DNA of 32,000 nucleotides from Nostoc sp. PCC 7120 = FACHB-418 (GTDB taxonomy: Bacteria > Cyanobacteriota > Cyanobacteriia > Cyanobacteriales > Nostocaceae): NCBI RefSeq assembly GCF_000009705.1, contig NC_003272.1, positions 3,090,001-3,122,000 of the forward strand. Direction: 5' to 3'. The notes under the pieces were generated by a model, which saw only the letters and a list, made by a program, of their open reading frames with translations, ran no database searches and was not told where the DNA came from. Position 1 is the stretch's first letter. Each line of letters opens with the position of its first letter. The position numbers and the translations under genes were made by a program. This document shows, piece after piece, positions 264 through 18,066 of the stretch.

Positions 264-1304
264 CTACTTCTTGCGATTACGAATTAACAAATAGAGGAAA
301 TAAGGCGCACCGACGGCAGCTGTCACTACGCCACAAGGAATTTCGATAGGTGCAAAGAGGGTTCGTCCCAAGAAGTCTGCCACAACAACAAGCATCCCTC
401 CCAACAACGCAGAGGTAGGGAGCAAGCCTTGATGATTTGTACCTACTAACTGTCTGCCTAAATGGGGTGCTATTAATCCTACAAAACCAATCATTCCGGC
501 TGTGGCGACTCCTGCACCTGCCAATGCTACACCTACTAGCACTAGCAAACCACGCTGCCATTCCACACGAGTACCTAAACCTTTGGCAACATCATCTCCC
601 AAATTTAAGGTGTTCAAATGTCTGGCTAATGTCAACGCCATCGGGACAAAAACGATTAACCAAGGTAAGAAGGAAAAGACTTGTTCCCAGGTGCGTCCGT
701 AGACACTACCCGCTAACCATACCAAAGCGTCACTGACGCTATAGATATCGCCAAAGGTAATCATCAAGCTGGTGAAAGCACCTGCGATCGCAGATAATCC
801 CACACCCATTAAAATAAACAAAACGGGGGAACTACCATTGTTCCAAGCTAAGGAGTAAATTAAACCAGCCATTAATAAAGCACCTGCAAAGGCTGATAAA
901 GGCAAAGTGTAAATGGGCGCTGAGGGAAATAGGACAATTACTGTAACTGCTGCTAGACTTGCCCCGGCATTAATGCCAATAATACCGGGATCAGCTAGTG
1001 GGTTGCGTGTGATGCCTTGAAAGATAGTCCCGGCAACGGCTAGTGCCACTCCTACCATGCAAGCGACAAGGGTACGGGGTAGACGCAGGTTGTAAATCAC
1101 AAAAGCATGATCTGGGTTGCCTGTATCTATACCTAATACTGTTTTGATGATATCTAAGGGCGCAATGGGATATTCACCCCGCCCTAAGTTCATTACCATC
1201 GCTACCACAATAGCCACTACCAAACATAGCAATATTGGTGGTACACGTCGGTCAATCCGCAAAGACATGGTTTCGGAACGGATGACGAGCCAATCAACCT
1301 TCAT
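264..1304 (-). CDS. FecCD-family iron-siderophore ABC permease (FecD/FhuB-like)
   Basis: 346-aa polytopic membrane ORF with FecCD/BtuC signatures ([26 protein letters not shown]-terminal GAPYFLYLL). Its ATG overlaps the upstream stop as ATGA at 1301-1304, which indicates translational coupling. Confidence 0.92.
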
Positions 1305-2332
1305 TTCTTCACCTTTGATTTAGCCAAGTAAACAAAAAAGGGTGCGCCAACCAATGCTGTCATTACTCCCACAGGTAATTCCTGGGGTTTGAGTAATACA
1401 CGGGCCGCCACATCTGCAACTAAAAGTAAAGTTGCACCGACGACTGCGGAGTATGGCAAAATCCAACGATAATCAGCTTTGATGAAAAATCTCACCATGT
1501 GAGGCACGACTAAGCCAATAAAGCCAATTGGCCCAGCCAGAGATACGGAACTTCCCGCCAGTAAAACCACGCTGATGGCAGTTGTAATTTTCACCCAAGC
1601 AGTCTGTTGACCCAAGCCTTTAGCCATATCTTCACCCAGACTCATGGTTGTAATTTGTCTACCCAGAGCAAAGGCTACTACTAAGCCAATCATGACGAAA
1701 GGTAAGGCTGACAATAAGATGTTGAAATCTCGTCCAGCCAAAGAACCAGCTAACCAAAATCTAATTTCTTCTAAGGTGCGTTGACTAACGATGAGAATAG
1801 CAGTGGTGAGGGAAGAAATCAGTGCTGTCAACGCCGCACCTGCTACGGTGAGATTTAATGGTGTAGCTCCTCCCTTCCCTAAAGACCCAAGGAAGTAGAC
1901 TAACATCGCTGTGACTCCTGCACCCAAAAAGGCCACAGTGGTTAACAAACCCAAGGAGGAGCTGCCAAACACGAAAATTGTTGTAACTACAGCTAATGCG
2001 GCCCCCGACTCAATCCCTAAAATTCCTGGATCTGCTAGAGGGTTGCGTGTCAAACCTTGCATTAATGCGCCAGCGACTGCCAAGGATGATCCTACAAGAA
2101 GAGCGACGAGCGATCGCGGTAATCTCACCGTCTGAATCACTAAATGCTCATAAGAACCATCAAAGGTGATAAAGGATTCCAGAATCTTGTTTAACGGTAT
2201 TTCTGCCGCACCCAATGTAACACTGTACACCAAGCAAATTAGCAGAATCAGTATGCCCAGAATCAGACCCACTAATGGCGATATTTTGGGTGGATTCCAG
2301 TTCCTTGGTGATGCTGTGGTTGCTCTTGTCAT
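1301..2332 (-). CDS. FecCD-family iron-siderophore ABC permease (FecC-like)
   Basis: 343-aa membrane ORF with [25 protein letters not shown] and GAPFFVYL motifs. It is the first gene of the minus-strand importer operon. Confidence 0.92.
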
Positions 2333-2806: not shown

Positions 2807-3790
2807 ATGGTACTCATCCTTCAGGAATCAGCAGATTGTTATCAATCATTGACAGAAAATAACAACACTCCGCAATCAAATATCTGGGAAGCTCATATAC
2901 ATGATCCACAAGGTATGAGTCATGGTTATAGACAATGGTTTCATTTGCGCCCTGGAATATCTCTGCTCACTGATCACTATCAGTTAAATAACGATTTAAT
3001 TGTGGAGAAAATATCTGCTCCTAACTGTCTGTGGTTAGAGTTGAGTTTTAGTATATTTGGTAATAATAATAATGAAGATGTCTACTCAGGACAAAATTTC
3101 TTATATGTATATAGAGAATTAGGCAAAGCTGGTTATACTAAATGGCAAGCTCAGGAAAGAATCTTGAAGTTTGATATTCATATTGAATATTCACAAATTC
3201 AAAAATTACTTGCTCATCAAATGGATGTATTGCCTGTAAGCTTTAGGCAAATGTTTGAAAAAAATGATGATGAGCCTAATTATCGGAATTTTGGGATTAC
3301 CACCCACGAAATGCAAACTGTTTTACGTCAAATCTTAAATTGCCCATATCAAGGTTTGACAAAACAACTCTATTTGGAGGGTAAAATATTAGAACTATTA
3401 GCATTACGTTTAGAATATCTCCAAGAAAATCCTAATTTTAATAAAAGCACGACTTTGAAACCTCATCAACTTGATAGTATTTATCATGCTAGAGATATTT
3501 TAATTAATAATATTAATAACCCACCTTCATTAATAAATTTAGCCCGACAGGTAGGATTAAATGATTGCACCCTGAAAAAAGGTTTTCAAGAGATATTCGG
3601 TACTACAGTTTTTGGATATTTACACGAATATCGTATGGAAGAGGCGAAAGAATTACTCTTAGACAAGAAAATGAATGTGACTCAAGTAGCTCAAATCGTC
3701 GGTTACGAAGCACGTACTTCTTTTATTAGGGCTTTCCGTAAAAAGTTCGGTGTGAGTCCTACTGCTTATGTCCAAAAAAATTCCGCTTAG
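2807..3790 (+). CDS. AraC-family transcriptional regulator in PchR/YbtA-like position, cassette 1
   Basis: 327-aa ORF. The C-terminal AraC dual HTH reads LARQVGLNDCTLKKGFQEIFGTTVFGYLHEYRMEEAKELL...VGYEARTSFIRAFRKKFGVSP. An N-terminal sensor-like domain of about 200 aa precedes it. The gene sits directly upstream of a TonB-dependent receptor. Confidence 0.9.
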   Translation: MVLILQESADCYQSLTENNNTPQSNIWEAHIHDPQGMSHGYRQWFHLRPGISLLTDHYQLNNDLIVEKISAPNCLWLELSFSIFGNNNNEDVYSGQNFLYVYRELGKAGYTKWQAQERILKFDIHIEYSQIQKLLAHQMDVLPVSFRQMFEKNDDEPNYRNFGITTHEMQTVLRQILNCPYQGLTKQLYLEGKILELLALRLEYLQENPNFNKSTTLKPHQLDSIYHARDILINNINNPPSLINLARQVGLNDCTLKKGFQEIFGTTVFGYLHEYRMEEAKELLLDKKMNVTQVAQIVGYEARTSFIRAFRKKFGVSPTAYVQKNSA

Positions 3791-3818
3791 GTAACAGAAA
3801 AATTCCCGTTACGTCACA
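3776..3818 (+). promoter_or_regulatory. Direct repeat AAAAATTCCGCTTAGGTAACA / AAAAATTCCCGTTACGTCACA with a 22-bp period, overlapping the AraC-1 stop codon. Candidate AraC operator.
   Basis: Both copies are read directly. The same AAATTCCG-core repeat recurs at the equivalent site in cassettes 2 and 3. Confidence 0.4.
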
Positions 3819-3951
3819 CTTAGAGCTTTAACTCTCCGTTTAATTACAGTAAGATTCTTGCTAAGAATTACTAATAACAGAAGCAAGTCTCAATGAGATG
3901 TAACTAAAAGTACACCTCATTGGTGCTTTATCTTTCTGTATGAGAGGAGAG

Positions 3952-6495
3952 ATGTTAATTAAACCAGCATTATTGCATCGTTTATGTTTGGCGGCGACGG
4001 TATCAGTTTTAATCAGTAATCAAACTGTATGGGCAGAGGTAAATACCTCACAAAATAAGACTCCTCAACTGAGTAAAGGTGTCCCAATACTGGCGCAAGC
4101 ACCGACAACTGAAATTTTAGAAGTAACAGGCGTGAAAGCGAATCCCACAGAAAAAGGCGTAGAAGTAATTCTACAGACTACCTCTGGGGAAAAATTACAA
4201 CTGGTAAATCGTAGTCAAGGTAACGCATATATTGCTGATATTCCTAATGCACAGTTACGCTTACCTAATGGTGATACTTTTACATTCACTTCCCCAAAGC
4301 CAGTGGAGGGAATTAGCGAGATTATAGTCAGCAATCTGGATGCTAATACTATTCGGGTGACAGTCACAGGTGAGGCGGGATTACCTGTAGTAGAGTTATT
4401 TGATAGTGATGAGGGTTTGATTTTGGGAGTGTTGAGTGCAGCACCGTCACAGACACAAGCTACACCAACACCAGAACCAGAACAACCAGCCGCTACAACT
4501 GATCAGCCTATTGAACTTGTAGTAACAGGACAACAAGATAGCTATCGTGTAACGAATGCTGCAACGGCTACTAAGACTGATACACCCTTGCGGGATATTC
4601 CCCAATCAATTCAAGTCATTCCTCGTCAAGTGATTGAGGATCAACGCGCTACCCAGTTGAATGAAGCATTGCGGAATGTCAGTGGTGTACAGCCATCCAA
4701 CAGTGCAGGGAGAACACGCGATCGCTTCGTGATTCGGGGATTTGATGATTTCAACTCGGTAATTCGAGATGGGTTTAAAGAAAACACCTCTGTATATAGA
4801 GAAACTGCCAATATTGAACGCATAGAAGTGTTAAAAGGCCCGGCTTCTGTGTTATTTGGACAACTAGAACCAGGGGGAGTAATTAACGTTATTACCAAGC
4901 AACCCCAGAGAGAACCCTTTTTAATTATGGGTTTAGAGGCGGGAAGTTATGGCTTTTTCCGTCCGACAGTGGATTTTAACAGTCCTCTGAATGACTCTAA
5001 AACCTTGCGATTGCGAGTTAATGCAGCTGTAGAAATTTCCGAATCCTTCCGTGACTTTGACAAAGAAACTAGCCGCTTTTTTATTGCGCCTGTATTAGCG
5101 TGGGAGATTGGCGATCGCACAAGCTTAGTATTTGACCTAGAATATTTAAAAGACTCTCGACCATTTGATCGGGGTTTAGTAGCATTAGGCGATCGCGTTG
5201 CTGAGATTCCCTTCAATCGCATCTTAGGCGAACCCTTTGACTCTAAAGAAGTAGAAGACTTACGGATTGGTACACGCTTTGAGCATGGCTTCAATGATAA
5301 CTGGAAACTGCGTTCTGCCTTCCGAATTGTCTCCACACAAACATCTAGTTTTGTGACTGAACCTGGTAGTTTGGATGAAGCCACAGGTTTACTATCTCGT
5401 GATTTTGGTGTAGATCGACCTACACCTGATGAAACCTACGCTTTTCAAACTGATCTGATCGGTAAATTTAAAACTGGTGCAATTGAACACGAACTTGTAA
5501 TTGGCTTTGACTTTAACCGCCAAACTAACTTCGTTGACGATCGCCGCAGCGCACCCGCACCCGCTATTGATATTTTCAACCCAGTCTATTTGACTGCTAG
5601 ACCTAATATAGAATCAGATCCGTTTCGGGGTTTATTTGCAGCAGATAACATTGGTATCTATATCCAAGACCAAATTAAACTGGCAGAAAATCTCAAACTC
5701 CTGATTGGCGGACGTTATGATTTTACCAATCAAAGTTTCCTGAGTATTGTTGATGGTGTGAAATTCTTTGATATATCCGATCAAGCATTTAGCCCCCGTA
5801 TAGGCATAGTATATCAACCAATTACACCCCTCTCTCTTTACGCCAGTTATAGCCGTTCTTTCGCGCAAAACTTTGGCATTCAACGGGACAACTCACGCAT
5901 AGAACCAGAACGAGGAACACAATACGAAGTTGGTGTGAGAGGAGAATTTTTAGATGGTAAATTGATTGCGAGTTTAGCGGGTTATCAGATTACTAAAACC
6001 AATGTTGCCACACCCGACCCCGCAGATTTAAACTTTTCTATTCCCGTTGGCGAAGTACGAAGTCGAGGGATTGAATTTGATATTGCTGGAGAACTGGCTA
6101 AAGGCTGGAATATTATTGCTTCCTATGCCTATACAGATGCCAAGATTACAGAAGATAATACCGATAACGAAGGCAATCGCCTCAATCGAGTGCCAGAAAA
6201 TAGTGCTAGTATTTGGACAACCTACGAATTGCAAAGTGGGGCGTTGCAAGGTTTGGGTATGGGTGTGGGATTATTTTTTGTAGGTGAACGTCAAGGAGAC
6301 TTAAGTAATTCCTTTACCGTTCCTGGCTACACCCGCACTGATGCTGCTTTGTTCTATCGTCGAGATAACTGGAATATAGGTCTCAATTTTAAAAACATTT
6401 TTGATGTTAACTATATTGAGTCCACCACATCCCGCACATCAATTGATGCTGGTATTCCTTTTACGGTTATCGGTTCGTTGTCTGTAAAATTTTAA
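3952..6495 (+). CDS. TonB-dependent siderophore receptor with N-terminal AMIN-like domain, cassette 1
   Basis: Signal peptide; AMIN-like segment (VTGVKANPTEKGVEVILQT...TIRVTVTGEAG); P/T/Q-rich linker; TonB-box-like PIELVVTG; plug motifs DTPLRDIPQSIQVI and VLKGPASVLFG; long beta-barrel ending in terminal F. I prefer the start at ATG 3952, which is preceded by GAGGAGAG. The track start at 3940 corresponds to ATG-TGA in the cassette 2 paralogue. Confidence 0.93.
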   Translation: MLIKPALLHRLCLAATVSVLISNQTVWAEVNTSQNKTPQLSKGVPILAQAPTTEILEVTGVKANPTEKGVEVILQTTSGEKLQLVNRSQGNAYIADIPNAQLRLPNGDTFTFTSPKPVEGISEIIVSNLDANTIRVTVTGEAGLPVVELFDSDEGLILGVLSAAPSQTQATPTPEPEQPAATTDQPIELVVTGQQDSYRVTNAATATKTDTPLRDIPQSIQVIPRQVIEDQRATQLNEALRNVSGVQPSNSAGRTRDRFVIRGFDDFNSVIRDGFKENTSVYRETANIERIEVLKGPASVLFGQLEPGGVINVITKQPQREPFLIMGLEAGSYGFFRPTVDFNSPLNDSKTLRLRVNAAVEISESFRDFDKETSRFFIAPVLAWEIGDRTSLVFDLEYLKDSRPFDRGLVALGDRVAEIPFNRILGEPFDSKEVEDLRIGTRFEHGFNDNWKLRSAFRIVSTQTSSFVTEPGSLDEATGLLSRDFGVDRPTPDETYAFQTDLIGKFKTGAIEHELVIGFDFNRQTNFVDDRRSAPAPAIDIFNPVYLTARPNIESDPFRGLFAADNIGIYIQDQIKLAENLKLLIGGRYDFTNQSFLSIVDGVKFFDISDQAFSPRIGIVYQPITPLSLYASYSRSFAQNFGIQRDNSRIEPERGTQYEVGVRGEFLDGKLIASLAGYQITKTNVATPDPADLNFSIPVGEVRSRGIEFDIAGELAKGWNIIASYAYTDAKITEDNTDNEGNRLNRVPENSASIWTTYELQSGALQGLGMGVGLFFVGERQGDLSNSFTVPGYTRTDAALFYRRDNWNIGLNFKNIFDVNYIESTTSRTSIDAGIPFTVIGSLSVKF

Positions 6496-6497
6496 TT

Positions 6498-6540
6498 GGG
6501 GACTGGGGACTGGGGACTGGGGACTGGGGACTGGGGACTG
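6498..6540 (+). repeat. STRR1-type heptamer array: GGGGACT x6 (complement of CCCCAGT)
   Basis: Six perfect tandem heptamers are read directly between the receptor stop (6493-6495) and the next ATG (6541). Confidence 0.95.
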
Positions 6541-7494
6541 ATGAATTACTTTTTTTGTGCTGATGAATCTCGCCAAGTTAACGAAGATCCGATTGGTAGT
6601 GGTTGCAGACGACAGTGCTATGTATTGATTGAATGTCCGCCTCCTTGGATGGCGAATGAATTTGATTCTAAAGCTGTACCTGCAAATTTGCGATCGCTAG
6701 AAAATGAGTTCTATGCAGTCGAACCTGATGGAATTTTACTATTTATCTACAGCGAAGAATTACGGCAAAATTATCTAACCCGTATCCTCATTTTTCGCCC
6801 CATGATGGGTTATTCCGGGGGATATATCAAGCAAGAAATTCATGTTTCTAGTCTTGAGGATGTGGCGATTGTTCTCAAAGATTGGTTAGCGGGTAAAGAT
6901 ATTGCTGATACAGATATCAATCCTCACACTAGGGATATCTTAGTTTGTACTCACGGCACTCATGATAAATGTTGTGCTAAATATGGTATCCCTTTTTATC
7001 GCCAGGCTAAAAATATAGTAGCTGATTTGGCTGTAGAATCTGTCCGAATTTGGCAATCTAGCCATTTTAGTGGTCATCGCTTTGCCCCTACTATTTTGGA
7101 TTTGCCCCAAGGTAGATACTACGGTAAATTAGACTGCCAAAGTTTTACAAATATTCTCACCTACACAGGGGATATTAACTGTTTAAAATCCATCTATCGT
7201 GGTTGGGGAATCCTCCCGTTTCCGGCGCAAGTGATGGAGGGAGAATTGATTTTTTTACATGGTTGGCAATGGTTTAATTATAAAGTTAGCTGTTGTTTCA
7301 TAGAACAAAGTGAAGATGAGTGCTTTAATCGCATAGAAATTAGTGCTATTCTTCCCGATGGTGATATTAAAACTTATCAAGCGGATGTGGTGGAAGATGA
7401 GAGTAAATCTATATATTTAATTGGGGATTGTCATGGGATTGAGCCAGAACTGATTCCTAAATACTCTGTGAATAATCTTATACAAATTATCTAA
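6541..7494 (+). CDS. Sucrase/ferredoxin-like family protein. Predicted thioredoxin-like [2Fe-2S] protein of the Apd1/Aim32 type, cytoplasmic.
   Basis: Motifs: LVCTHGTHDKCCAKYG (C-x8-C, codons 6946-6975), SSHFSGHRFAP (H-x-x-G-H, 7063-7077) and EDPIGSG...LIECPPPW. No signal peptide is present. The start is set at ATG 6541 because the track start at 6496 only translates the heptamer array. The stop TAA is immediately followed by the ATG of the next gene. Confidence 0.75.
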   Translation: MNYFFCADESRQVNEDPIGSGCRRQCYVLIECPPPWMANEFDSKAVPANLRSLENEFYAVEPDGILLFIYSEELRQNYLTRILIFRPMMGYSGGYIKQEIHVSSLEDVAIVLKDWLAGKDIADTDINPHTRDILVCTHGTHDKCCAKYGIPFYRQAKNIVADLAVESVRIWQSSHFSGHRFAPTILDLPQGRYYGKLDCQSFTNILTYTGDINCLKSIYRGWGILPFPAQVMEGELIFLHGWQWFNYKVSCCFIEQSEDECFNRIEISAILPDGDIKTYQADVVEDESKSIYLIGDCHGIEPELIPKYSVNNLIQII

Positions 7495-8487
7495 ATGAAG
7501 ACTTGGTTTAAGTATATAAAATTATTGCTGCTATCAGTTTGTACTTTTTTGTTAGTGACAGGCTGTAACAGTAACGTATCAAAATTACCAAGTAATCAGA
7601 CTACCAGCAATATAACTACAAATTGCCGTGTAATTAATCATGAAGCAGGTAAAACGCAGATCTGCGGACAACCTAAAAAAGTTGTTGCTCTGAGTCCGCC
7701 TGTGTTAGATATGATGCTTGCTTTGGGTGTGCAACCTGCGGGTTATGCGGAAGTAGACTTGCTCAACAGTAAAGTATTTGATCGACCTAAAGAGCAAATT
7801 CCCTACCTTGGCGATCGCATTACCAGTCAACCGATGAATGTAGGCGATCGCGGTAATCCTTCTTTAGAAAGTTTACTGCAACTGAAGCCAGATTTGATTT
7901 TAGGTGAAGCATCTTATAACGAAACTGAATACCAAATCTTAAACAAAATTGCACCGACAATTTTAATAAGTCATCGAGATGGTATCACTCCAGCTTGGCA
8001 ACAAACAATCTCAATTATTGCCCAAGCTTTAGGACGAGAAGATAAAGTACCAACCGTCATAGCAGAGTATGAACAGAAATTATCCCAAGCCAAAACTGCG
8101 ATCGCTCCTATTGCTCAACACCAGGAACTATTGCTGTTAGCATTTAGGGGAATTACTCTAACCTCATTTACCTTTGGAGCAGAAACCTTTGCTGGCGGAC
8201 TATTACAAGATTTAGGATTTAAGCTTGTTAGTCCTGAATCCACAGAATATGAAGTGGCGTTGGAAGTATTACCTAAATTTAAGTCCGACTTAATTGTGAT
8301 TATGCCTTCAGGAAATAACAATATAGAAAACGCCAAGCGTCAATGGAGTCAAAATCCGATTTTACAGTCTATATCTGCTCACAATACAAATCGAATTTAC
8401 TTCATTGATTACCAACTAGCAAGCCGCATTCGCGGGCCGATCGCTGCTGAGTTGTTTGTTAATCAAGTTCGTCAATTGCTGTCTTGA
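7495..8487 (+). CDS. Periplasmic iron-siderophore binding lipoprotein (FhuD/FecB-type), cassette 1
   Basis: 330-aa ORF with lipobox LLVTGC, a conserved CRVINH..GKTQIC pair, and KPDLILG and IYFIDY motifs typical of siderophore/cobalamin-type binding proteins. Confidence 0.88.
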   Translation: MKTWFKYIKLLLLSVCTFLLVTGCNSNVSKLPSNQTTSNITTNCRVINHEAGKTQICGQPKKVVALSPPVLDMMLALGVQPAGYAEVDLLNSKVFDRPKEQIPYLGDRITSQPMNVGDRGNPSLESLLQLKPDLILGEASYNETEYQILNKIAPTILISHRDGITPAWQQTISIIAQALGREDKVPTVIAEYEQKLSQAKTAIAPIAQHQELLLLAFRGITLTSFTFGAETFAGGLLQDLGFKLVSPESTEYEVALEVLPKFKSDLIVIMPSGNNNIENAKRQWSQNPILQSISAHNTNRIYFIDYQLASRIRGPIAAELFVNQVRQLLS

Positions 8488-8737: not shown

Positions 8738-9724
8738 ATGGTACTCATCCTTCAGGAATCAGCAGATTGTTATCAACCATTGACAGAAAATAACAACACT
8801 CCACAATCAACTATCTGGGAAGCTCATATACATGATCCGCAAGGTATGAGTCATGGTTATAGACAATGGTTTCATTTGCGCCCAGGAATATCTCTGCTCA
8901 CTGATTGTTATCAGTTAAATGATGATTTAGTTGTGGAGAAAGCACCTAGCCCTGCTTTAATTTGGTTAGAGTTAAGTTTTAATATCTTTGGTCATAACAT
9001 CTGTGAAGGTGTCTACCCAGGAGAAAATTTCTTAGATGTATATCGAGGATTAGAACCAGCAAATCATACTGAATGGCAAGCACAGGAAAAAGTTTTAAAA
9101 TTTGATATTCACCTTGAATATTCAGAACTTCAAAGATTATTTGCTCATCAAATGGATTTATTGCCAGCTAGCTTTAGACGAATGTTTGAAAAAAATGATG
9201 ATGAGCCTGAGTATCGGAATTTTGGCATTACCACCCATGAAATGCAAATTGTGTTACGTCAGATTTTAAATTGTCCCTATCAAGGTTTGACAAAACAACT
9301 TTATTTGGAAGGCAAAATATTAGAATTATTAGCTTTACGGTTGGAATATCTACAAGAAAATCCTACTAATATCAATACAGACAATACTCTTAAAAATCAT
9401 CAAGTTGATGGTATTTACCATGCTAGAGATATTTTAATTAAAAATCTCAATAACCCACCTTCATTAATAGATTTGGCGAGGCTGGTGGGATTAAATGATT
9501 GCACACTAAAAAAGGGGTTTCAAGAGGTGTTTGGGACTACAGCCTTTGGATATTTACATGAATATCGTATGGAACAGGCGAAAGAATTACTCTTAGAAAA
9601 AGAAATGAATGTGACTCAAGTAGCCCAAGTGGTTGGTTATGAAGCGCGTACTTCTTTTATCAGGGCTTTCCGTAAAAAGTTCGGTGTGAGTCCTACTGCT
9701 TATATCCAAAGAAATTCCGCTTAG
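8738..9724 (+). CDS. AraC-family transcriptional regulator, cassette 2 (close paralogue of 2807-3790)
   Basis: 328-aa ORF. The N-terminal 65 aa and the HTH region are near-identical to AraC-1, while the middle segment has diverged. Confidence 0.9.
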   Translation: MVLILQESADCYQPLTENNNTPQSTIWEAHIHDPQGMSHGYRQWFHLRPGISLLTDCYQLNDDLVVEKAPSPALIWLELSFNIFGHNICEGVYPGENFLDVYRGLEPANHTEWQAQEKVLKFDIHLEYSELQRLFAHQMDLLPASFRRMFEKNDDEPEYRNFGITTHEMQIVLRQILNCPYQGLTKQLYLEGKILELLALRLEYLQENPTNINTDNTLKNHQVDGIYHARDILIKNLNNPPSLIDLARLVGLNDCTLKKGFQEVFGTTAFGYLHEYRMEQAKELLLEKEMNVTQVAQVVGYEARTSFIRAFRKKFGVSPTAYIQRNSA

Positions 9725-9751
9725 GTAACAATAAATTCCGTTGATGTCACA
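9710..9751 (+). promoter_or_regulatory. Direct repeat AGAAATTCCGCTTAGGTAACA / ATAAATTCCGTTGATGTCACA with a 21-bp period, overlapping the AraC-2 stop codon
   Basis: Read directly. It is homologous to 3776-3818. Confidence 0.4.
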
Positions 9752-9884
9752 CTTAGAGCTTTAACTCTCCATTTAATTGCAGTAAGATTCTCGCTAAGAA
9801 TTACTAATAACAGAAGCAAGTCTCAATGAGATGTCATGCAATATACACCTCATTATGGCTTTATCTTTCTGTATGTGAGGAGAG

Positions 9885-12434
9885 ATGTTAATTAAAGCAG
9901 GTTTATTAAATACTTTGTACTTGGCGACAATAGTATCAATCTTAATCAGTAATCAAACTGTACGGGCAGAGGTAAACACCACAGGCAATCAAACTCCTCA
10001 ACTGAGTAAAGATGTCTCAATATTGGCGCAAGCACCGACAACTGAAATTGTACAAGTAACAGGAGTGACAGCAAATCCTACAGAAAAAGGCGTGGAAGTT
10101 ATTTTACAGACTACCTCTGGGGAAAAATTACAACTGGTAAATCTCAGTCAAGGTAACGCATACATAGTTGATATTCCTAATGCACAGTTACGCTTACCTA
10201 ATGGTGATAGTTTTACATTCACTTCCCCAAAGCCAGTGGAGGGAATTAGCGAGATTATAGTTACCAATCTGGATGCTAATACTATTCGGGTGACAGTCAC
10301 AGGTGAGACGGGATTACCTGTAGTAGAGTTATTTGATAGTGATGAGGGTTTGATTTTGGGGGTGGTGAGTGCAACACCCCCACAGACACAAGCTACACCA
10401 GAACAACCAGCAGCACAGACTGAAGAAAATCAAGAACCAATTGAACTGGTGGTGACAGGCGAACAGGATATATATAGTGTTCCTAATGCTTCCACTGCTA
10501 CCAGAACCGATACTCCATTGCGCGATATCCCTCAATCGATTCAAGTGATCCCGCAGCAGGTGTTGAAAGACCAGCAAGTAACTCGCATCTTAGATGCTGT
10601 GCGGAATGTGTCAGGGGTGACTCCACAAAAAGGTTATGGAGATGCGACAGATTTTTATACTATTCGCGGATTTAACTCGAATCGAACTCTGAGAAATGGA
10701 TTCAATGTTCGAGCCGCTAGGGGTGGTACGTCTACTTTTACCGCTCCTAGCAGCGTTGAGCGAGTCGAAGTTCTCAAAGGCCCGGCTTCCGTTTTGTATG
10801 GGCAATTAGAACCAGGGGGACTTGTAAATATTGTTACCAAAAAACCCCTCAGCGATCCCTACTATGCGGCTGAATTTACTGCTGGGAGTTACAGTTTTTA
10901 TAGCCCTTCATTAGATATCTCTGGGCCTCTGACTACTGACAAAAAACTGTTATATCGCTTGAATGCTTCGTATCAAAACTTTGGTAGCTTCATTGATTTT
11001 GTCAATGGGGAAAACTTGTCTATTGTACCCGTCGTCAATTATCAGATTAGCGATCGCACAGCCTTAACTTTTGAGTATGAACATTCACGCTCAAATCAGT
11101 CTTTTAATGATGGTTTACCCATAGATCCCATTTCCTTTGAGTTACCCATCAGTCGAAATTTAAACAATCCTGACGATACACTTGACAATACCACTAATAG
11201 TCTCAATTTCACCTTGGAGCATGGATTTAATGATAATATCCGCCTCCGCACTGTTTTTGGAGCTTCTTTTTCTGAGGGGACAACTTTAGCCTACCGTCTG
11301 TTTAACTACAATCCAGAAACCAATGAAGTCCTACGAGCCTTTCGGAATAGTCCAGATTATGAAAATGACTATTCTTGGCAAACCGATGTGATTGCTAAGT
11401 TTAATACTGGCGCAGTCAAACATGAGCTACTTGTCGGATTTGAACTCGCTTTTAATGATAACGCTTACAATGCAACGGATTCAGAAGACAGCTTCATTAA
11501 TGTTTTTAATCCTGTGTATGATACACCAATCCCACTAGCATTATACAGTTTTAGTGGCAAAAGCAATTCTAATACCATAGGTCTCTATCTCCAAGATCAA
11601 ATCACCCTCTCGCCTAATTTAAAGTTATTAATCGGAGGTAGATATGATTTTGCTAGAGCTAAATCTGATTCTAATTTCCAGTTTATAGGTGAACCTGACA
11701 GCCCTACCTCAGATGAATTTTATAATGAAGCCTTTTCCCCGCGTGTGGGATTGGTGTATCAACCGATTGAACCCATCTCTTTGTATGCTAGTTATAGTCG
11801 CTCCTTTCTCCCCAACAATGCTAAAACTTTTAGTGGAGAGATAATTGAACCAACTCGTGGTAAACAGTTGGAAGTAGGAGTCAAAGCTGATTTTGGGAGA
11901 CTTTCGACAACTCTAGCAGCTTATGAGATTACTAAAACTAATATTCTCACCAGCGATCGTGACAACCCTTTTTTCTCTCTTGGGGTGGGAGAAGTCAGAA
12001 GTCGTGGTATTGAGTTAGACATTTCTGGAGAAATTTTACCAGGTTGGAATGTCATTGCTTCCACTTTTATTAATGATTCCGTCATCACCCAAGATAATAA
12101 TCTACCTATTGGTGATACATTGGTTAATGCTCCAAGGCGTGGAGCTAGTCTGTGGACAACCTATGAAATTCAGACGGGCGATTTGCAAGGATTGGGCTTT
12201 GGCTTAGGGGTATTTTATGTTGGCGATCGCCAAGCTGAATTACCCAACAATCTTGTGTTACCATCCTATGTGCGTGCTGATGCTTCTATTTTCTATAGAC
12301 GCGATAACTGGAGAATAGGATTAAATTTTAAAAATCTATCTGACACGAGATATTACGAATCATCTCAAAATAGTTCATTGATATATCCAGGAACACCACT
12401 TACTGTATTGGGAACTGTTTCAGTACAATTTTAA
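9885..12434 (+). CDS. TonB-dependent siderophore receptor with AMIN-like domain, cassette 2
   Basis: 849-aa ORF with the same architecture as cassette 1 (signal peptide, AMIN-like domain, PIELVVTG, plug, barrel, terminal F). GAGGAGAG lies immediately upstream of the ATG. Confidence 0.93.
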   Translation: MLIKAGLLNTLYLATIVSILISNQTVRAEVNTTGNQTPQLSKDVSILAQAPTTEIVQVTGVTANPTEKGVEVILQTTSGEKLQLVNLSQGNAYIVDIPNAQLRLPNGDSFTFTSPKPVEGISEIIVTNLDANTIRVTVTGETGLPVVELFDSDEGLILGVVSATPPQTQATPEQPAAQTEENQEPIELVVTGEQDIYSVPNASTATRTDTPLRDIPQSIQVIPQQVLKDQQVTRILDAVRNVSGVTPQKGYGDATDFYTIRGFNSNRTLRNGFNVRAARGGTSTFTAPSSVERVEVLKGPASVLYGQLEPGGLVNIVTKKPLSDPYYAAEFTAGSYSFYSPSLDISGPLTTDKKLLYRLNASYQNFGSFIDFVNGENLSIVPVVNYQISDRTALTFEYEHSRSNQSFNDGLPIDPISFELPISRNLNNPDDTLDNTTNSLNFTLEHGFNDNIRLRTVFGASFSEGTTLAYRLFNYNPETNEVLRAFRNSPDYENDYSWQTDVIAKFNTGAVKHELLVGFELAFNDNAYNATDSEDSFINVFNPVYDTPIPLALYSFSGKSNSNTIGLYLQDQITLSPNLKLLIGGRYDFARAKSDSNFQFIGEPDSPTSDEFYNEAFSPRVGLVYQPIEPISLYASYSRSFLPNNAKTFSGEIIEPTRGKQLEVGVKADFGRLSTTLAAYEITKTNILTSDRDNPFFSLGVGEVRSRGIELDISGEILPGWNVIASTFINDSVITQDNNLPIGDTLVNAPRRGASLWTTYEIQTGDLQGLGFGLGVFYVGDRQAELPNNLVLPSYVRADASIFYRRDNWRIGLNFKNLSDTRYYESSQNSSLIYPGTPLTVLGTVSVQF

Positions 12435-12467
12435 AAATTTGCCAGATATCAAAAACTAAAAGCAAAG

Positions 12468-13469
12468 ATGTCCAAACGGTGGCTTTATTCTCTCCAGCTA
12501 ATCTTCTTTATAACCTTGGTCTTTGTATTAGTGACGGGTTGTTATAGCCATCCAAATCAAAATATTCAATCTGCTAATTCAAAACCAGTCACATCTGAAT
12601 GTCGAATTATCAAGCATCCCTTGGGAGAAACCTGTATTCCTTTGCATCCCCAGCGCATTATCGCTATGGATGAAGATATTTTAGAAATTTTGGTAGCACT
12701 AGATTTAAAACCCATAGCTGTAGCCATAAATTTTGATGAATGGAGTAGTAGAGAAAAACAATTATGGCAAAAAGCTGAAGGTATAGATTCAATTGTTATA
12801 GGAAATCATGGTATTTTGAATCTAGAAAAAATGCTGCTATTAAAACCAGATTTAATTTTAGGTCTAGCAGAAAGCACCGACAGAAAAAGCTACGAGTTAT
12901 TTTCGCAAATAGCCCCGACTGTTACTGTTGATTATGCTCAAACTGCTTGGAGAGATGTCCTTTTGCGTGTTGGTAATATAATCGGTAAAACTGAACAAGC
13001 CCAGAAATTAATTGCTGAATTTCAGCAACGAATAGAAAAATTGCGGGTAATTGTAAAAAACAAATTGGGAAAAACAAAAATTTCTGTAGTACGTGTATAT
13101 AATTACTTTCACAAAACAATAGAATTTCGCTCCAATTTCTCATTCCCCGGTAGCCTTCTTGTGGAGTTGGGACTGTCTTTTCCAGAAAAACAAAATCAAA
13201 TTCCTACTAGTCCAGGCTTTCCTTTTGTATTTGCAAGTCTAGAAAGACTAGACTTACTAGATGCAGATGTAATGTTTGTCACATTAGATGCTGGTGGTGA
13301 AGAAAACTTCAAAAAATTTCAGGCTAGCCCCTTATGGCAAAAGCTGAAAGCAGTCAAAAACAATTGCGTATACACAGTTGATTCAGGTTACTGGATATTT
13401 GGCAATATTATGTCAGCTAACGCCATACTCGATGATTTAGATAAATACCTTCTCCAGCAATGTAGATAA
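12468..13469 (+). CDS. Periplasmic iron-siderophore binding lipoprotein, cassette 2 (type B, similar to 25421-26380)
   Basis: 333-aa ORF with lipobox VLVTGC, CRIIKHPLGETC, KPDLILG and VYTVDSGYW. Confidence 0.88.
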   Translation: MSKRWLYSLQLIFFITLVFVLVTGCYSHPNQNIQSANSKPVTSECRIIKHPLGETCIPLHPQRIIAMDEDILEILVALDLKPIAVAINFDEWSSREKQLWQKAEGIDSIVIGNHGILNLEKMLLLKPDLILGLAESTDRKSYELFSQIAPTVTVDYAQTAWRDVLLRVGNIIGKTEQAQKLIAEFQQRIEKLRVIVKNKLGKTKISVVRVYNYFHKTIEFRSNFSFPGSLLVELGLSFPEKQNQIPTSPGFPFVFASLERLDLLDADVMFVTLDAGGEENFKKFQASPLWQKLKAVKNNCVYTVDSGYWIFGNIMSANAILDDLDKYLLQQCR

Positions 13470-13519: not shown

Positions 13520-13567
13520 TTGCTGTATTGTTTCACTACATTACAATAATTAATGATATTATTTATC
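13520..13567 (+). promoter_or_regulatory. Candidate Fur-repressed promoter: -35 TTGCTG (13520-13525), -10 TACAAT (13542-13547), Fur-box-like ATTAATGATATTATTTATC (13549-13567)
   Basis: By hand alignment the box matches the 19-bp Fur consensus at 14 of 19 positions. The element lies 28 bp upstream of the ATG at 13595. Confidence 0.45.
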
Positions 13568-13594
13568 AATAAATTTTCTGTTGACATTACTCAG

Positions 13595-13987
13595 ATGACC
13601 AAACACACCCTATTCGTTTGCAAATCTTGTCACCGTTCATCGGAAGAATTGGCAGAAAATCAGCCTTGCGATGGCAGTATTTTACTTGACAAAATTACCA
13701 GCTTGTATTCAGAAAAATTTGCAACAGAAGAACTGGAAATTCAGTCTGTGGGATGTTTATGGGCTTGCAGCCGTGGCTGTGTTGTGGCGCTTTCCAGTCC
13801 AGAAAAACCAACCTATCTGTTGGTTGATTTACCTCCAGATGCAGAAAATGCTTCAGCATTACTCGAATTTACACAGATGTACATTAATAATCGTAAAGGG
13901 GCGTTTATGTGGGAAAAACTTCCCAAAGAATTGGAGTCTGCCATTTTTGCAAGTATTCCTTCTGTATTGACGAAACCGGAAGGTTAG
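13595..13987 (+). CDS. DUF1636/COG5469-like predicted metal-binding protein with a thioredoxin-like ferredoxin fold
   Basis: MTKHTLFVCKSCHRS...DG..LL...VGCLWACSRGCVVALSSPEKPTYLLVDL...IFASIP matches my recollection of the family pattern (C-x2-C ... C-x3-C-x3-C, then YL..L and the C-terminal I.ARIP region). The start is set at ATG 13595, whereas the track starts at 13553. Confidence 0.65.
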   Translation: MTKHTLFVCKSCHRSSEELAENQPCDGSILLDKITSLYSEKFATEELEIQSVGCLWACSRGCVVALSSPEKPTYLLVDLPPDAENASALLEFTQMYINNRKGAFMWEKLPKELESAIFASIPSVLTKPEG

Positions 13988-14316: not shown

Positions 14317-15309
14317 ATGACCCTTGTTTTACAAGAAGATTTTCATCATTTATTGACATCAGAACCACTAGATAATAACGCTCCTTTTCAACTCAAAACT
14401 TATGAATTGCAGGTAGATGATCCCAGGGGGATAAGTCATGGTTATAGACGGTGGTTGTATTTACGTCCAGGAATCTCCCTGTTGCTAGAAAAATATAATC
14501 TGCAAGAAAACTTAGTTATTGAATATTCCCCACATCAACCTTATTCTTGTTTAGAATTAGGGTTTCATATTTTGGGTCGTGACCCTCATTTAGATTTAAG
14601 AACAGGGCAAAATTTCATAGCTTTAGAACTAGATCCTGGTGAAAGTAGTTGGAAAGAATGGCAAGCTCAAAAAGAGTTTTTAAAACTAGATATTCATATT
14701 GAATATGCTTTATTTGAAAGTTTCGTATTCGATCATATAGATAAATTACCTGCCGATTTTAGACAGATCATTGAGAATGCTAATAGCGGTGAAATGAATT
14801 ATCTGCAAATTGGTAGGACAACACCACAAATGCAGACCATTTTACAACAAATATTAAATTGTCCCTATCAAAGTTTAACAAAGCAACTTTATTTAGAGGC
14901 TAAAGTATTGGAATTAATGGCGTTAAGGTTTGAAGAATTACAAGATTCGCTTATCTTAAATCAAAATATTAACCTCAAACCGATACAAATTGATAGTATT
15001 TACCAAGCCAGAGATATTCTCATTAATAATTTTACTAATCCACCAACATTAATAGCCTTAGCACGGCAAGTCAATCTGAATGATTGCACTCTTAAAAAAG
15101 GCTTTCAGCAAATATTTGGTACAACTGTCTTTGGTTATTTGCATAACTACCGTATGGAACAAGCCAAGGAATTACTTTTAGATGCCAAGTTAACTGTCAA
15201 TCAAGTAGCACAATATGTAGGTTATGCTAGTCGTAGTGCTTTTATGACAGCTTTCTGTAAAAAGTTTGGCGTGAGTCCTAGCGTTTACTCGCGCAAAAAT
15301 TCCGTTTAA
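14317..15309 (+). CDS. AraC-family transcriptional regulator, cassette 3
   Basis: 330-aa ORF with the AraC HTH LARQVNLNDCTLKKGFQQIFGTTVFGYLHNYRMEQAKELL...VGYASRSAFMTAFCKKFGVSP. Confidence 0.9.
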   Translation: MTLVLQEDFHHLLTSEPLDNNAPFQLKTYELQVDDPRGISHGYRRWLYLRPGISLLLEKYNLQENLVIEYSPHQPYSCLELGFHILGRDPHLDLRTGQNFIALELDPGESSWKEWQAQKEFLKLDIHIEYALFESFVFDHIDKLPADFRQIIENANSGEMNYLQIGRTTPQMQTILQQILNCPYQSLTKQLYLEAKVLELMALRFEELQDSLILNQNINLKPIQIDSIYQARDILINNFTNPPTLIALARQVNLNDCTLKKGFQQIFGTTVFGYLHNYRMEQAKELLLDAKLTVNQVAQYVGYASRSAFMTAFCKKFGVSPSVYSRKNSV

Positions 15310-15338
15310 AGAACTAAAAAATTCCGTTTAGAGAACAT
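15295..15338 (+). promoter_or_regulatory. Direct repeat AAAAATTCCGTTTAAAGAACT / AAAAATTCCGTTTAGAGAACA with a 22-bp period, overlapping the AraC-3 stop codon
   Basis: Read directly. The two copies are identical at 19 of 21 positions. Confidence 0.45.
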
Positions 15339-15484
15339 TCCATACTTTAGCTTTTCCTCAGATTACCGTAAGATTACTGAGAATACTTACTAATAAGACT
15401 TGCGTTTGTAATTCAAACAATCTTGCTAAAGTCATTGTCCGCTTGAGTTACGGACAAATTGTGTTATCTGATGTGGGGAGATAG

Positions 15485-18043
15485 ATGAAGTTAGATAAAT
15501 TATTTCCAAACTTGCTGCTGACAAGTGCAATACCTTTGACAATGGCTATTTTATTCGCCACTCCCACACGAGCCGAGACAGTGGGACAGGATAAAATCAA
15601 ACTTCCTGTAACTAATGCTCGTATTATCGCACAAACATCAGCCCCCACCCAACAGACTCTGATTCTCATTACAGGAGTAAAGGCAAATTCCACTGAAAAA
15701 GGGGTGGAGGTAATTTTAGAAACCACCCAAGGGGAGCAACTGCAAGTTACTAATCGCAGCACGGGAAATAATTTTATTGCAGATATTACTACAGGACAAT
15801 TGCAACTACCTAATGGAGATGCTTTTACATATCGCTCAGAAAAACCTATAAATGGAATTACGGAGATAACAGTTGCAAATCTTGACGCGAATACTGTACG
15901 AGTTACGGTAGTCGGTGAAAAGGCCTTACCTGCGGTTGAGTTATTTGATGATGATGCAGGGTTGATTTTGGCTGTTGAATCTACAACCACAGCCACACAA
16001 CCGCCAGCAACACCAACTAGTGATGCACCTCCAGCAGAACCCATAGCCCAACAGGATGACCCAATTGAGTTGGTAGTAACGGGAGAACAAGACAGATATC
16101 GCGTACCTACCGCCTCAACTGCGACTAAAACCGATACGCCTGTGCGCGATATTCCTGGTTCGATTCAAGTGATCCCGCGTCAAATCTTAGAAGACCAAAA
16201 AACCACGCGCATACAAGAGGTATTGCAGAACGTTAGCGGTGTCAACAAACAAGGTAATTATGGTGGTACAGATGCAGGTGGATATAGAATTCGTGGCTTC
16301 GATCAGGATGGTAACTTCCGCAATGGTTTTAATGATACTGACTTTTATTCTTTGGTAGACACAGCTAACATCGATCGCATCGAAGTTCTCAAAGGACCGG
16401 CTTCGGTGCTATTCGGTCAGGCTGAACCAGGAGGAATTATCAATGTTGTCACCAAACAACCCCTGAGAACTCCCTATTATGCGGCTGAGTTGAATGTGGG
16501 TAATTATGCCTTTTATCGCCCTAGTTTTGATATTTCGGGGCCGCTGACAGATGATGGTTCACTGTTGTATCGGTTGAATGTGGCTTATCAAAATTCTGGG
16601 AGTTTTCGAGATTATAACTTTCTAGAACGGGTATTTGTTGCGCCTGTAATTACTTGGAATATTAGCGATCGCACTTCTTTAACCTTTGACTTAGAATATC
16701 AGGACAACGATTATCTCTTTGATCGTGGTATTCCTTCCATTGGCGATCGACCTGCTCCTATCCCTATTAGTCGCTTTGTTGGTCTGCCCCACGTTTATAA
16801 CGATAGCACTTTTCGGATTGGCTATCGACTAGAGCATGACTTTAGTAAAGACTGGCAACTGCGTAATGCGTTTTCCTTTGTTTCTGGGAAATCATCTGGG
16901 ACTTATGCCTATGGTGGCTATGACTTAATTGATGACCAGTTTGCCCCAATATACGTGAGTCGTGATGAGTTCACACGCGACATCTATACTTTACAAACAG
17001 AAGTAGTTGGTAAGTTCAAGACGGGATCAATTGTTCATCAACCTTTAATTGGGGTGGAGTTAAGACGCAACACCTGGAAATACACCTCATTCGATGTGGC
17101 AGATCCTATACTTCTGGACATTTTTAATCCCAATTATGATGTAGAACTCCCGGCTACACCTGATGAAAGCACTTTCTCCTACACAACTAGAAGAGATACT
17201 TTAGGGATTTACGTTCAAGACCAAATTACTTTTGCAGATAATTTGAAGCTCTTAGTTGGTGGTCGCTTTGATGCCTTCCAGAGAAAAGAAGAAGGTTTCT
17301 CAGAAACAGCGAGTGAAGAATCTCTCAGTGCTTTTAGTCCCCGTATCGGTATAGTTTATCAACCAATTCAAGCGATTTCTCTTTATGCCAGTTATTCTCA
17401 ATCGTTTAAACCCGATCGCTTTTTTGGTCGTTCGGCAAGTAACGAACCCTTTAAGCCAACAAGAGGAACACAGTACGAAGTTGGTATCAAGGCAGATATT
17501 AGCGAAAAACTTTCAGCAACCCTAGCAGCCTACGAGATTACCAAAACTAACGTTGTCACTTCCGATCCCAACGATCCCAATTTATCTGTGCAGGTTGGAG
17601 AACAAAGAAGTAGAGGGATTGAATTAGATATTGGCGGGGAGATTGTGCCAGGTTGGAATATCATTGCCTCTTACACCTACACCGATGCAATTACCTCAAA
17701 GGACAATACCATTCCCGTAGGTAATCGCATCGATAATGTACCCGAACACGCTGCAAGTTTGTGGACAAGCTATGAACTGCAAAGCGGTGATTTAAAAGGT
17801 TTGGGCTTTGGTTTGGGACTGTACTATGTGGGAGATAGATATGCCGACGTGGAAAATACAAGCTTGTTGTCCAGCTATTTCCGAACAGATTCAGCAATAT
17901 ATTACAAACGAGATAACTGGAGGTTGGCTCTAAATTTCCGCAATCTTTTCAATGAAACTTACTATGAAACATCTCAAGCCAGAAATACAATCTATCCTGG
18001 TGCGCCTTTTACTGTCATCGGTTCGTTTTCAATTCAGTTTTGA
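15485..18043 (+). CDS. TonB-dependent siderophore receptor with AMIN-like domain, cassette 3
   Basis: 852-aa ORF. GGGGAG lies upstream of the ATG. Signal peptide, AMIN-like domain, PIELVVTG, plug (DTPVRDIPGSIQVI, VLKGPASVLFG), barrel, terminal F. Confidence 0.93.
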   Translation: MKLDKLFPNLLLTSAIPLTMAILFATPTRAETVGQDKIKLPVTNARIIAQTSAPTQQTLILITGVKANSTEKGVEVILETTQGEQLQVTNRSTGNNFIADITTGQLQLPNGDAFTYRSEKPINGITEITVANLDANTVRVTVVGEKALPAVELFDDDAGLILAVESTTTATQPPATPTSDAPPAEPIAQQDDPIELVVTGEQDRYRVPTASTATKTDTPVRDIPGSIQVIPRQILEDQKTTRIQEVLQNVSGVNKQGNYGGTDAGGYRIRGFDQDGNFRNGFNDTDFYSLVDTANIDRIEVLKGPASVLFGQAEPGGIINVVTKQPLRTPYYAAELNVGNYAFYRPSFDISGPLTDDGSLLYRLNVAYQNSGSFRDYNFLERVFVAPVITWNISDRTSLTFDLEYQDNDYLFDRGIPSIGDRPAPIPISRFVGLPHVYNDSTFRIGYRLEHDFSKDWQLRNAFSFVSGKSSGTYAYGGYDLIDDQFAPIYVSRDEFTRDIYTLQTEVVGKFKTGSIVHQPLIGVELRRNTWKYTSFDVADPILLDIFNPNYDVELPATPDESTFSYTTRRDTLGIYVQDQITFADNLKLLVGGRFDAFQRKEEGFSETASEESLSAFSPRIGIVYQPIQAISLYASYSQSFKPDRFFGRSASNEPFKPTRGTQYEVGIKADISEKLSATLAAYEITKTNVVTSDPNDPNLSVQVGEQRSRGIELDIGGEIVPGWNIIASYTYTDAITSKDNTIPVGNRIDNVPEHAASLWTSYELQSGDLKGLGFGLGLYYVGDRYADVENTSLLSSYFRTDSAIYYKRDNWRLALNFRNLFNETYYETSQARNTIYPGAPFTVIGSFSIQF

Positions 18044-18066
18044 CCTTGATTTTTGTTGAGTTGATC

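Follow-up and report, generated by a model that had tools for sequence, protein, structure and literature searches.

Suc_Fer-like thioredoxin-like ferredoxins encoded in siderophore-uptake operons: a possible bis-histidinyl [2Fe-2S] route to ferric-siderophore reduction

Background

The yeast proteins Apd1 and Aim32 (S. cerevisiae) are bis-histidinyl, non-Rieske [2Fe-2S] proteins of the Pfam family PF06999 (Suc_Fer-like), with the ligand motif C-X8-C-X24-75-H-X-G-G-H (PMC11138216). In these proteins, two cysteines hold the ferric iron and two histidines hold the reducible iron, an arrangement that enables proton-coupled electron transfer (PMC11138216, PMC8482512). Apd1 and Aim32 have been linked to redox stress and polyphenol tolerance rather than to the uptake of iron, whereas the bacterial genes of this family discussed here sit in siderophore import operons. 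The gene that we analyze is the open reading frame (ORF) at 6541-7494 in a 32,000-nucleotide stretch of DNA (contig NC_003272.1, positions 3,090,001 to 3,122,000; hereafter the window). We call its product Suc_Fer-like protein 1, or protein 1, and consider it together with a second paralogue (protein 2) encoded in the same window.

Two structurally unrelated types of bacterial protein provide the functional comparison. Ferric-siderophore reductases (FSRs) of the FhuF/FchR type are cytoplasmic [2Fe-2S] proteins of hydroxamate-siderophore uptake, and the SIP/ViuB/YqjH proteins (SIPs) carry FAD in an FNR-like fold. Redox-Bohr, proton-coupled transfer is described as a shared feature of FhuF and the SIPs that eases the reduction of low-potential ferric-siderophores (10.1101/2023.07.04.547673). 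The closest described relative in a siderophore context is CctD (BAU16020) of the cyanochelin B cassette of Leptolyngbya sp. NIES-3755, named in a preprint of 30 July 2026 that reports the association for cyanobacteria only and leaves the function unresolved (10.64898/2026.07.30.741596).

A first-pass annotation of the window had placed the ORF among the Apd1/Aim32-type proteins, suggested a profile search and a survey of neighboring genes, and proposed a new class of ferric-siderophore reductase, with no described role of the family in siderophore use. Its observation is confirmed here, and its interpretation is supported only in part. The claim that no role had been described has to be narrowed, since the association already appears in the preprint on CctD.

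Results

Protein 1 is clearly a member of PF06999 and belongs with the bis-histidinyl thioredoxin-like ferredoxins of the Apd1/Aim32 type. The profile search suggested in the first-pass annotation returned a match with E=2.5e-27 and 96.6 bits (cut-off 34.9) across profile positions 3-191 of 191. The motif reads C136-THGTHDKC-C145-x29-H175-FSG-H179, with W171 before the first histidine, and it lies at exactly the four codons that had been named as ligands: 6946-6948 (C136), 6973-6975 (C145), 7063-7065 (H175) and 7075-7077 (H179). The motif of protein 1 departs from the H-x-G-G-H of Apd1 and Aim32 by a serine at the first glycine position, whereas protein 2 has an exact HFGGH. We predict from these residues that C136, C145, H175 and H179 ligate a [2Fe-2S] cluster. 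All four are invariant in an alignment of 90 homologs, as are H138, G139, D142, W171, W242 and W244, and 135 of 149 sequences that represent clusters at 50% identity keep the pattern C-x8-C...H-x-x-G-H. The conservation of the ligands, left as a question by the first-pass annotation, is thereby established, and the Pfam match, the motif and the structural matches described below agree on the family that it had assigned.

Within the C-x8-C loop, conservation extends beyond the ligands, with H(+2) present in 132, D(+6) in 130 and C(+8) in 120 of the 135 motif-bearing representatives. An N-terminal cysteine together with a GEDPIG-like motif (6556-6600) is kept in close homologs, and a loose pattern for it matches only 51 of the 135 diverse representatives. 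H138, D142, C144 and the N-terminal Cys/GEDPIG element may serve as a relay for protons or make up a second site, for a metal or a substrate. The family is large: we found 610 homologs among 5.8 billion proteins, mostly cyanobacterial and annotated as 'sucrase ferredoxin', the best being 90% identical (Cronbergia sp. UHCC 0137), and an exhaustive search of cluster representatives returned 3133 clusters at E<=1e-3. NCBIfam holds no model covering the Suc_Fer-like family. Nothing in this analysis supports the name 'sucrase'.

The AlphaFold2 model of protein 1, built with the 90-sequence alignment, has a pLDDT of 94 and a pTM of 0.92. Its best Foldseek matches in the PDB are thioredoxin-like [2Fe-2S] ferredoxins, namely the Aquifex protein (1m2b/1f37), A. 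vinelandii FeSI (5abr) and HydB modules, with TM scores of 0.62-0.65 over about 100 residues and E values of about 2e-3 for 1m2b, 1f37 and 5abr. In the model, a strand ends at C136, a helix starts at C145, and H175 and H179 follow the next strand. This topology agrees with the position of the cluster site in solved thioredoxin-like ferredoxins. The model supports a thioredoxin-like [2Fe-2S] ferredoxin fold for the core, and its topology suggests that the four ligands would converge on one site. Neither the single sequence nor the 90-sequence profile had a solved relative in sequence searches of the PDB, and Foldseek against the PDB found no solved structure that resembles the whole protein.

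What sets the bacterial proteins apart is the part that follows the motif. The family, the ligand motif, the conserved tryptophan and the thioredoxin-like ferredoxin fold are common to protein 1 and Apd1/Aim32, but the bacterial motif lies in mid-sequence and a tail of about 110-190 amino acids (aa) follows it in nearly all full-length bacterial representatives, the last ~95 residues of which form an alpha+beta domain; in contrast, the thioredoxin-like ferredoxin domain of Aim32 is described as C-terminal (PMC8482512). Modeled alone by AlphaFold2, the C-terminal domain of protein 1 reaches a pLDDT of 92. Foldseek of the isolated domain gave topological matches only (designed cystatin-fold and NTF2-like proteins, E>=0.15), and therefore no functional inference is drawn from them.

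The classical thioredoxin-like ferredoxins (Aquifex Fd4, A. vinelandii FeSI and the NuoE/HydB modules), which give the best structural matches to the core, are all-Cys dimers of about 100 aa, whereas protein 1 has two histidines in place of the C-x3-C pair and has flanking N- and C-terminal domains. The spacing in the second half of its motif (x29, x3) falls within the published range for thioredoxin-like ferredoxins (PMC11138216). With FhuF/FchR, protein 1 would share a cytoplasmic [2Fe-2S] cluster, an association with siderophore uptake, the proposed redox-Bohr transfer and a similar logic of cluster domain plus putative substrate domain, but FhuF has an unrelated fold and the all-Cys motif C-C-x10-C-x2-C (10.1101/2023.07.04.547673). 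We rejected an FhuF-type FSR identity, as a regular-expression search found this motif in neither paralogue and there is no Pfam FhuF match. The C-C pairs that do occur (144-145; VSCCF) are not FhuF-like, and the VSCCF pair is not conserved. A SIP identity was likewise rejected, since protein 1 matches neither PF04954 nor PF08021; the SIPs resemble the Suc_Fer-like proteins in the proposed role and in occupying an equivalent slot beside siderophore binding-protein genes.

To assess how closely these genes are tied to siderophore import, we examined the 80 closest genomic loci and computed a neighbor-joining (NJ) tree of 81 genes. A binding-protein gene lies within 300 bp on the same strand in 24/80 loci and a receptor gene within 10 kb in 23/80; neither is found within 10 kb in 55/80. 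In the NJ tree, every one of the 26 genes of the protein 1 clade adjoins a binding-protein or receptor gene, usually in the order TonB-dependent receptor (TBDT), Suc_Fer-like gene (SucFer), substrate-binding protein (SBP), and the tight spacing to the binding-protein gene is kept in orthologous loci. All 55 genes of the sister clade are standalone, with no transport gene within 10 kb. Genomic context thus tracks phylogeny without exception. The standalone orthologs (e.g. L078 9968-10978) are proteins of about 325 aa that are 48-51% identical and occur in Nostocales and other filamentous cyanobacteria; in Nostoc punctiforme NIES-2108, the standalone copy has genes for a ROK kinase, Mut7-C, Fer4+HTH (PatB-like) and COX2 as neighbors. 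Protein 2 falls into a third, distant clade, in which the order is TBDT-SBP-SucFer and to which CctD/BAU16020 also belongs. Two further proteins of this clade (P0274 and P0384), from apparent PCC 7120-type assemblies, both follow AraC-TBDT-SBP, one with an ATGA overlap. The Anabaena PCC 7120 counterpart of P0274 is presumably all2617, and alr2589 is a candidate for a third transport-linked copy in that strain.

The linkage recurs well beyond Nostocales, which we sampled through eight loci found with a divergent profile and eight plasmid loci. The gene is part of an iron-siderophore transport operon in 6/8 of the former and 7/8 of the latter, in varied orders. Among these are AraC-SBP-SucFer in Paenibacillus, FecCD-SucFer-FecCD-SBP-ATPase in Deinobacterium, and SucFer-permease-SBP-permease-ATPase in Deinococcus deserti, where SucFer is the first gene of an iron ABC operon and has an ATGA overlap. 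In three metagenome-assembled genomes (MAGs) or metagenome contigs, SucFer comes last, behind FecBCDE genes, and a linkage to iron-siderophore transport genes is also present in Chondrinema (Bacteroidota). The cyanobacterial orders include AraC-SucFer-TBDT-SBP in Acaryochloris, TBDT-SBP-SucFer beside a non-ribosomal peptide synthetase gene in Gloeothece, and SBP-SucFer in Leptolyngbya boryana. In the CctD cassette, the order is TBDT-SBP-MFS-CctD-permeases, with cctD overlapping cctE; CctD is of the same family as protein 1, but it is tied to a known siderophore, whose biosynthetic cluster accompanies it on a plasmid. Protein 1, about 30% identical to the CctD-type paralogue, belongs to the other clade and has the order TBDT-SucFer-SBP. 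The copies of an Anaerolineales MAG, Paenibacillus cremeus and Tsukamurella are not beside transport genes.

Two of these loci are informative in other respects. On pAQ7 of Picosynechococcus PCC 7002 (L102 5770-7981), the order is exbB-exbD-SucFer, divergent from the receptor gene schT (G0138), and the old locus tag of the SucFer gene is presumably G0135. Between exbB and schT, and thus ahead of the exbB-exbD-SucFer unit, three Fur sites have been predicted (PMC5062996), and a putative DmdR1 site is reported for Streptomyces SCO5830 (PMC12161575). In Deinobacterium chartae (L088 5910-12633), two uptake systems are adjacent: one has SucFer between its two FecCD genes, and the other, divergent system has a SIP gene (FAD_binding_9+SIP) right after its binding-protein gene, so that two putative types of reductase seem to occur here as natural neighbors.

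These results indicate that the link to siderophore uptake claimed in the first-pass annotation recurs in many gene orders and in at least four phyla, and the neighbor survey that it had suggested bears this out. We regard a genuine functional tie of the Suc_Fer-like genes to siderophore utilization as highly probable. Because the gene orders vary across phyla and include bacteria without outer-membrane receptors, selection appears to act on a cytoplasmic function downstream of the ABC importer.

At the locus itself, the gene is set at 6541-7494 on the forward strand (317 aa, ATG at 6541) because its homologs all begin within two residues of this ATG. A mechanical ORF call had started at TTG 6496; we rejected this start, as its first 15 codons are a translated heptamer repeat, the (TGGGGAC)x6.3 array producing a spurious in-frame extension. 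In form, the array is similar to the short tandemly repeated repetitive (STRR) sequences known from heterocystous cyanobacteria. Upstream, the AMIN-Plug-barrel TonB-dependent receptor gene ends at 6495, 45 nt from the ORF; downstream, the TAA stop (7492-7494) directly abuts the ATG at 7495 of the FecB-like lipoprotein gene (a TAAATG junction). This junction, together with the spacing kept in orthologous loci, upholds the membership in an uptake operon that had been claimed. Scans for promoters and terminators between the receptor, ORF and binding-protein genes gave nothing above the shuffled expectation, and co-transcription is therefore neither supported nor contradicted by them. The sequence of the N-terminus (MNYFFCADESRQVNEDPIG...) shows no hydrophobic stretch of the signal type, in line with the reported lack of a signal peptide, and protein 1 is probably soluble and cytoplasmic.

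The window contains two further genes of interest that the first-pass annotation did not mention. The second Suc_Fer-like gene, with its ligands at C151, C160, H190 and H194, closes a TBDT-SBP-SucFer operon; protein 2 is about 30% identical to protein 1 and 50.8% identical to CctD/BAU16020. The other gene, in the equivalent slot of cluster 2, encodes a Cys-rich DUF1636 protein of thioredoxin fold. Metagenome loci show the layout AraC-TBDT-SBP-DUF1636 five more times, once in L096 and twice each in L097 and L098, and the only relative of the DUF1636 protein in the PDB is 9jn8, 'ORF378' (E=4e-9). Possibly, the DUF1636 protein carries electrons in an analogous way.

Judged by its annotated ORFs, the window is an island of siderophore-uptake genes (Table 1). 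It contains four AraC/receptor/binding-protein clusters, at 2807-8487, 8738-13469, 14317-19143 and, on the reverse strand, 25421-31306, and the AraC-TBDT-...-SBP layout recurs in loci related to cluster 1. A Pfam scan of the window ORFs of at least 100 aa found no FhuF or SIP gene. The layout of the FecCD genes matches that published for all2585/all2586 of Anabaena PCC 7120 (PMC3610870), and the window as a whole appears to mirror the all2584-alr2596 region of that strain, in which alr2589 and alr2594 lie between receptor and binding-protein genes or behind them and have carried the label 'hypothetical' since 2009 (PMC3610870, PMC2771747).

Table 1. Features of the siderophore-uptake island (window coordinates)
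Feature	Coordinates	Strand	Evidence and remarks
Two FecCD permease genes	264-2332	-	PF01032 E~1e-97 each; divergent from cluster 1
AraC-family regulator, cluster 1	2807-3790	+	Pfam HTH_18/HTH_AraC
TonB-dependent receptor 1, AMIN-Plug-beta-barrel	3940-6495	+	PF11741, PF07715, PF00593
Heptamer tandem array (TGGGGAC)x6.3	6497-6540		Tandem Repeats Finder (TRF): 100% matches, score 88; fills the receptor-ORF spacer
Suc_Fer-like protein 1, 317 aa	6541-7494	+	N-subdomain 1-125, thioredoxin-like ferredoxin core ~131-222, C-terminal alpha+beta domain 227-317
C136-x8-C145 loop (CTHGTHDKCC)	6946-6975	+	Predicted Cys ligands, plus conserved H138, D142, C144
H175-F-S-G-H179	7063-7077	+	Predicted His ligands; motif type as in Apd1/Aim32
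C-terminal domain (residues 222-317)	7204-7491	+	One long helix packed on an antiparallel sheet of four strands; beyond the Pfam model
FecB-like periplasmic binding lipoprotein 1 (Peripla_BP_2)	7495-8487	+	PF01497 E=6e-23
Cluster 2: AraC 8738-9724, receptor 9885-12434, binding protein 12468-13469	8738-13469	+	ORFs; PF01497
DUF1636 protein, Cys-rich	13553-13987	+	PF07845 E=1.5e-35; 83 bp after the cluster 2 binding-protein gene
Suc_Fer-like protein 2, 333 aa; C151, C160, H190, H194	24417-25418	-	PF06999 E=4e-29, 102.4 bits
Receptor 4 (26422-29001) and binding protein 4 (25421-26380)	25421-29001	-	PF01497; receptor by tblastn paralogy

The third cluster on the forward strand (14317-19143; AraC, receptor, binding protein) is without a ferredoxin-like gene, and its receptor and binding-protein genes share 4 nt (18040-18043). 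It is followed by a gene for an NmrA-like NAD(P)H-binding protein on the opposite strand (19389-20243) and then by a divergent HxlR-type regulator gene (20333-20728, forward strand). No ORF of at least 100 aa is present across 20729-22707. A 153-aa ORF on the reverse strand (22708-23169) matches only positions 80-228 of the ABC_membrane profile and is probably the remnant of an ABC exporter, like the exporters that precede the homologous operon in PCC 7120-type assemblies (L081). A DUF2887 C-terminal fragment (23723-24181, forward strand) contains a repeat, (GGTAAACTCGAA)x4.1 at 24035-24083, that encodes a reiterated GKLE peptide, and a YhgA-like transposase fragment lies at 29879-30268.

Discussion

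We propose that protein 1 serves as a dedicated electron-transfer protein of the cytoplasm and reduces either the ferric-siderophore after its import or an iron species that arises from it. We put this forward tentatively, with a confidence that falls just short of an even balance, and we infer that protein 1 binds a cluster, that its substrate is the siderophore and in which direction the electrons flow. The proposal rests on four considerations: a one-electron [2Fe-2S] carrier with histidine ligands gives intrinsic proton coupling; there is a paralogue per uptake system, with an added domain; the slot of SucFer equals that of the SIP in Deinobacterium and that of DUF1636 in sister clusters; and no known reductase gene was found in the island.

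Under the proposed mechanism, each uptake system would have a Suc_Fer-like copy of its own. Once brought in by the ABC importer, the ferric-siderophore would dock near the exposed, His-ligated iron of the cluster, in a pocket probably shared with the extra C-terminal alpha+beta domain, and this added domain could confer substrate recognition. One electron, with protons, would then be passed to the ferric-siderophore by proton-coupled transfer from the bis-histidinyl cluster, Fe(II) would be released, and a cellular donor, for example ferredoxin or FNR, would reduce the protein again.

Several observations weigh against a reductase. Our search of the literature on PF06999, siderophores and the Anabaena locus tags returned no functional study beyond the 2026 preprint and no biochemistry of a bacterial member. 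In Synechocystis, CctD is dispensable for cyanochelin B-dependent growth, CctAB alone being enough (10.64898/2026.07.30.741596), a negative result that could be confounded by host complementation or by photolysis of cyanochelin. The standalone clade, with 55 of the 81 genes, and the unlinked non-cyanobacterial members indicate that the chemistry of the family is not siderophore-specific. The redox potential raises a further difficulty. The Apd1 cluster reportedly has a midpoint potential at pH 7 (Em,7) of about -164 mV (Stegmaier et al. 2019). FhuF (-420 mV) and SfSIP (-320 mV at pH ~8) lie far below this value (10.1101/2023.07.04.547673), and by analogy the potential of the cluster in protein 1 is expected to be much less negative than that of FhuF. 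As the Apd1 potential is above typical ferric-hydroxamate potentials, the driving force may be poor without trapping of Fe(II) or protonation.

Four other explanations have to be weighed, and we take them in falling order of plausibility. The protein might be a sensor of redox or iron status, with a labile His-ligated [2Fe-2S] cluster that modulates the adjacent AraC regulator or the ABC importer and so tunes siderophore-specific uptake. An AraC regulator is indeed present in most cyanobacterial clusters and in the Paenibacillus locus, the dispensability of CctD in a heterologous host fits a modulatory role, and thioredoxin-like ferredoxins have been suggested to act in regulation, Aim32 being a possible thiol-based molecular switch (PMC11138216, PMC8482512). 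However, a regulator gene is missing from many linked operons (such as those of Deinococcus, Deinobacterium and the MAGs), the protein has no DNA-binding or known partner-interaction domain, and one copy per transporter is equally expected of a substrate-specific enzyme. We consider a sensor unlikely.

A second explanation, which we hold to be improbable to a similar degree, is that the protein acts on the ligand rather than on the iron, reducing or detoxifying siderophore moieties (catechol/quinone or hydroxamate N-O groups) or quenching redox cycling after import. The analogy with the chemoprotection of yeast against polyphenols by Apd1/Aim32 points in this direction, as does the role of Aim32 in degrading allelochemicals (flavonoids, phenolics) postulated by Stegmaier et al., as cited in PMC8482512. 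As the standalone clade shows, this chemistry also has uses other than iron import, and the Tsukamurella copy lies beside a gene of the nitroreductase/quinone-reductase family and an efflux pump. Against this, the linked copies are found with parts of the import machinery (SBP, FecCD, TBDT, ExbBD) for probably diverse siderophores and not with catabolic genes, and the Fur control predicted for PCC 7002 suggests a part in acquiring iron.

Less plausible again, and in our view quite unlikely, is an iron acceptor or chaperone in which the Cys2His2 site, or a site formed by H138, D142, C144 and the N-terminal Cys, passes liberated iron to Fe-S assembly or storage. The conservation of H138, D142 and C144 besides the four ligands, and the Dps or ferritin genes near the L094 and L. 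boryana loci, would suit such a role, but the homologous site of Apd1/Aim32 holds a stable, redox-active [2Fe-2S] cluster, and there is no sign of cluster transfer. Finally, a housekeeping ferredoxin whose position in uptake operons is meaningless (hitch-hiking, or co-regulation under low iron) would agree with the standalone state of more than half of the closest homologs and with the dispensability of CctD, but it is highly improbable given that context tracks phylogeny perfectly, that the linkage takes at least six gene orders in at least four phyla with coding regions often overlapping or abutting, and that chance adjacency to a Peripla_BP_2 gene, by our own estimate, is below about 1% per gene against the 24/80 observed.

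If ferric-siderophore reduction is the function, a broader possibility follows, in which we place somewhat less confidence than in the proposal for protein 1 itself: Suc_Fer-like proteins with the extra C-terminal domain might constitute a third class of ferric-siderophore reductase, structurally unrelated to the FhuF-type FSRs and the flavin SIPs. Such a class would use proton-coupled transfer from a bis-histidinyl [2Fe-2S] cluster, would be widespread in Cyanobacteria, Deinococcota, Bacillota and Bacteroidota, and would comprise transporter-specific paralogues. The DUF1636 proteins may be yet another analogous solution.

Conclusions

Beyond the association of CctD with siderophore uptake in cyanobacteria, our analysis shows that the family comprises two transport-embedded clades and one standalone clade, and that its linkage with FecBCDE importers recurs across phyla. 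It also adds the conserved C-terminal domain, the extra residues of the cluster loop, the equivalence of the DUF1636 slot and the predicted Fur control in PCC 7002. The hypothesis is directly testable, as the proteins are small and soluble and genetics is available in two carriers, Anabaena PCC 7120 and Picosynechococcus PCC 7002. If it is true, a dedicated bis-histidinyl [2Fe-2S] reductase would fill a gap in how cyanobacteria release siderophore iron and would mean that several phyla acquire iron with the help of a new enzyme class. The multiplication of these genes together with pairs of receptor and binding-protein genes would be explained as well, and the bacterial branch of the Apd1/Aim32 family would receive its first physiological function.

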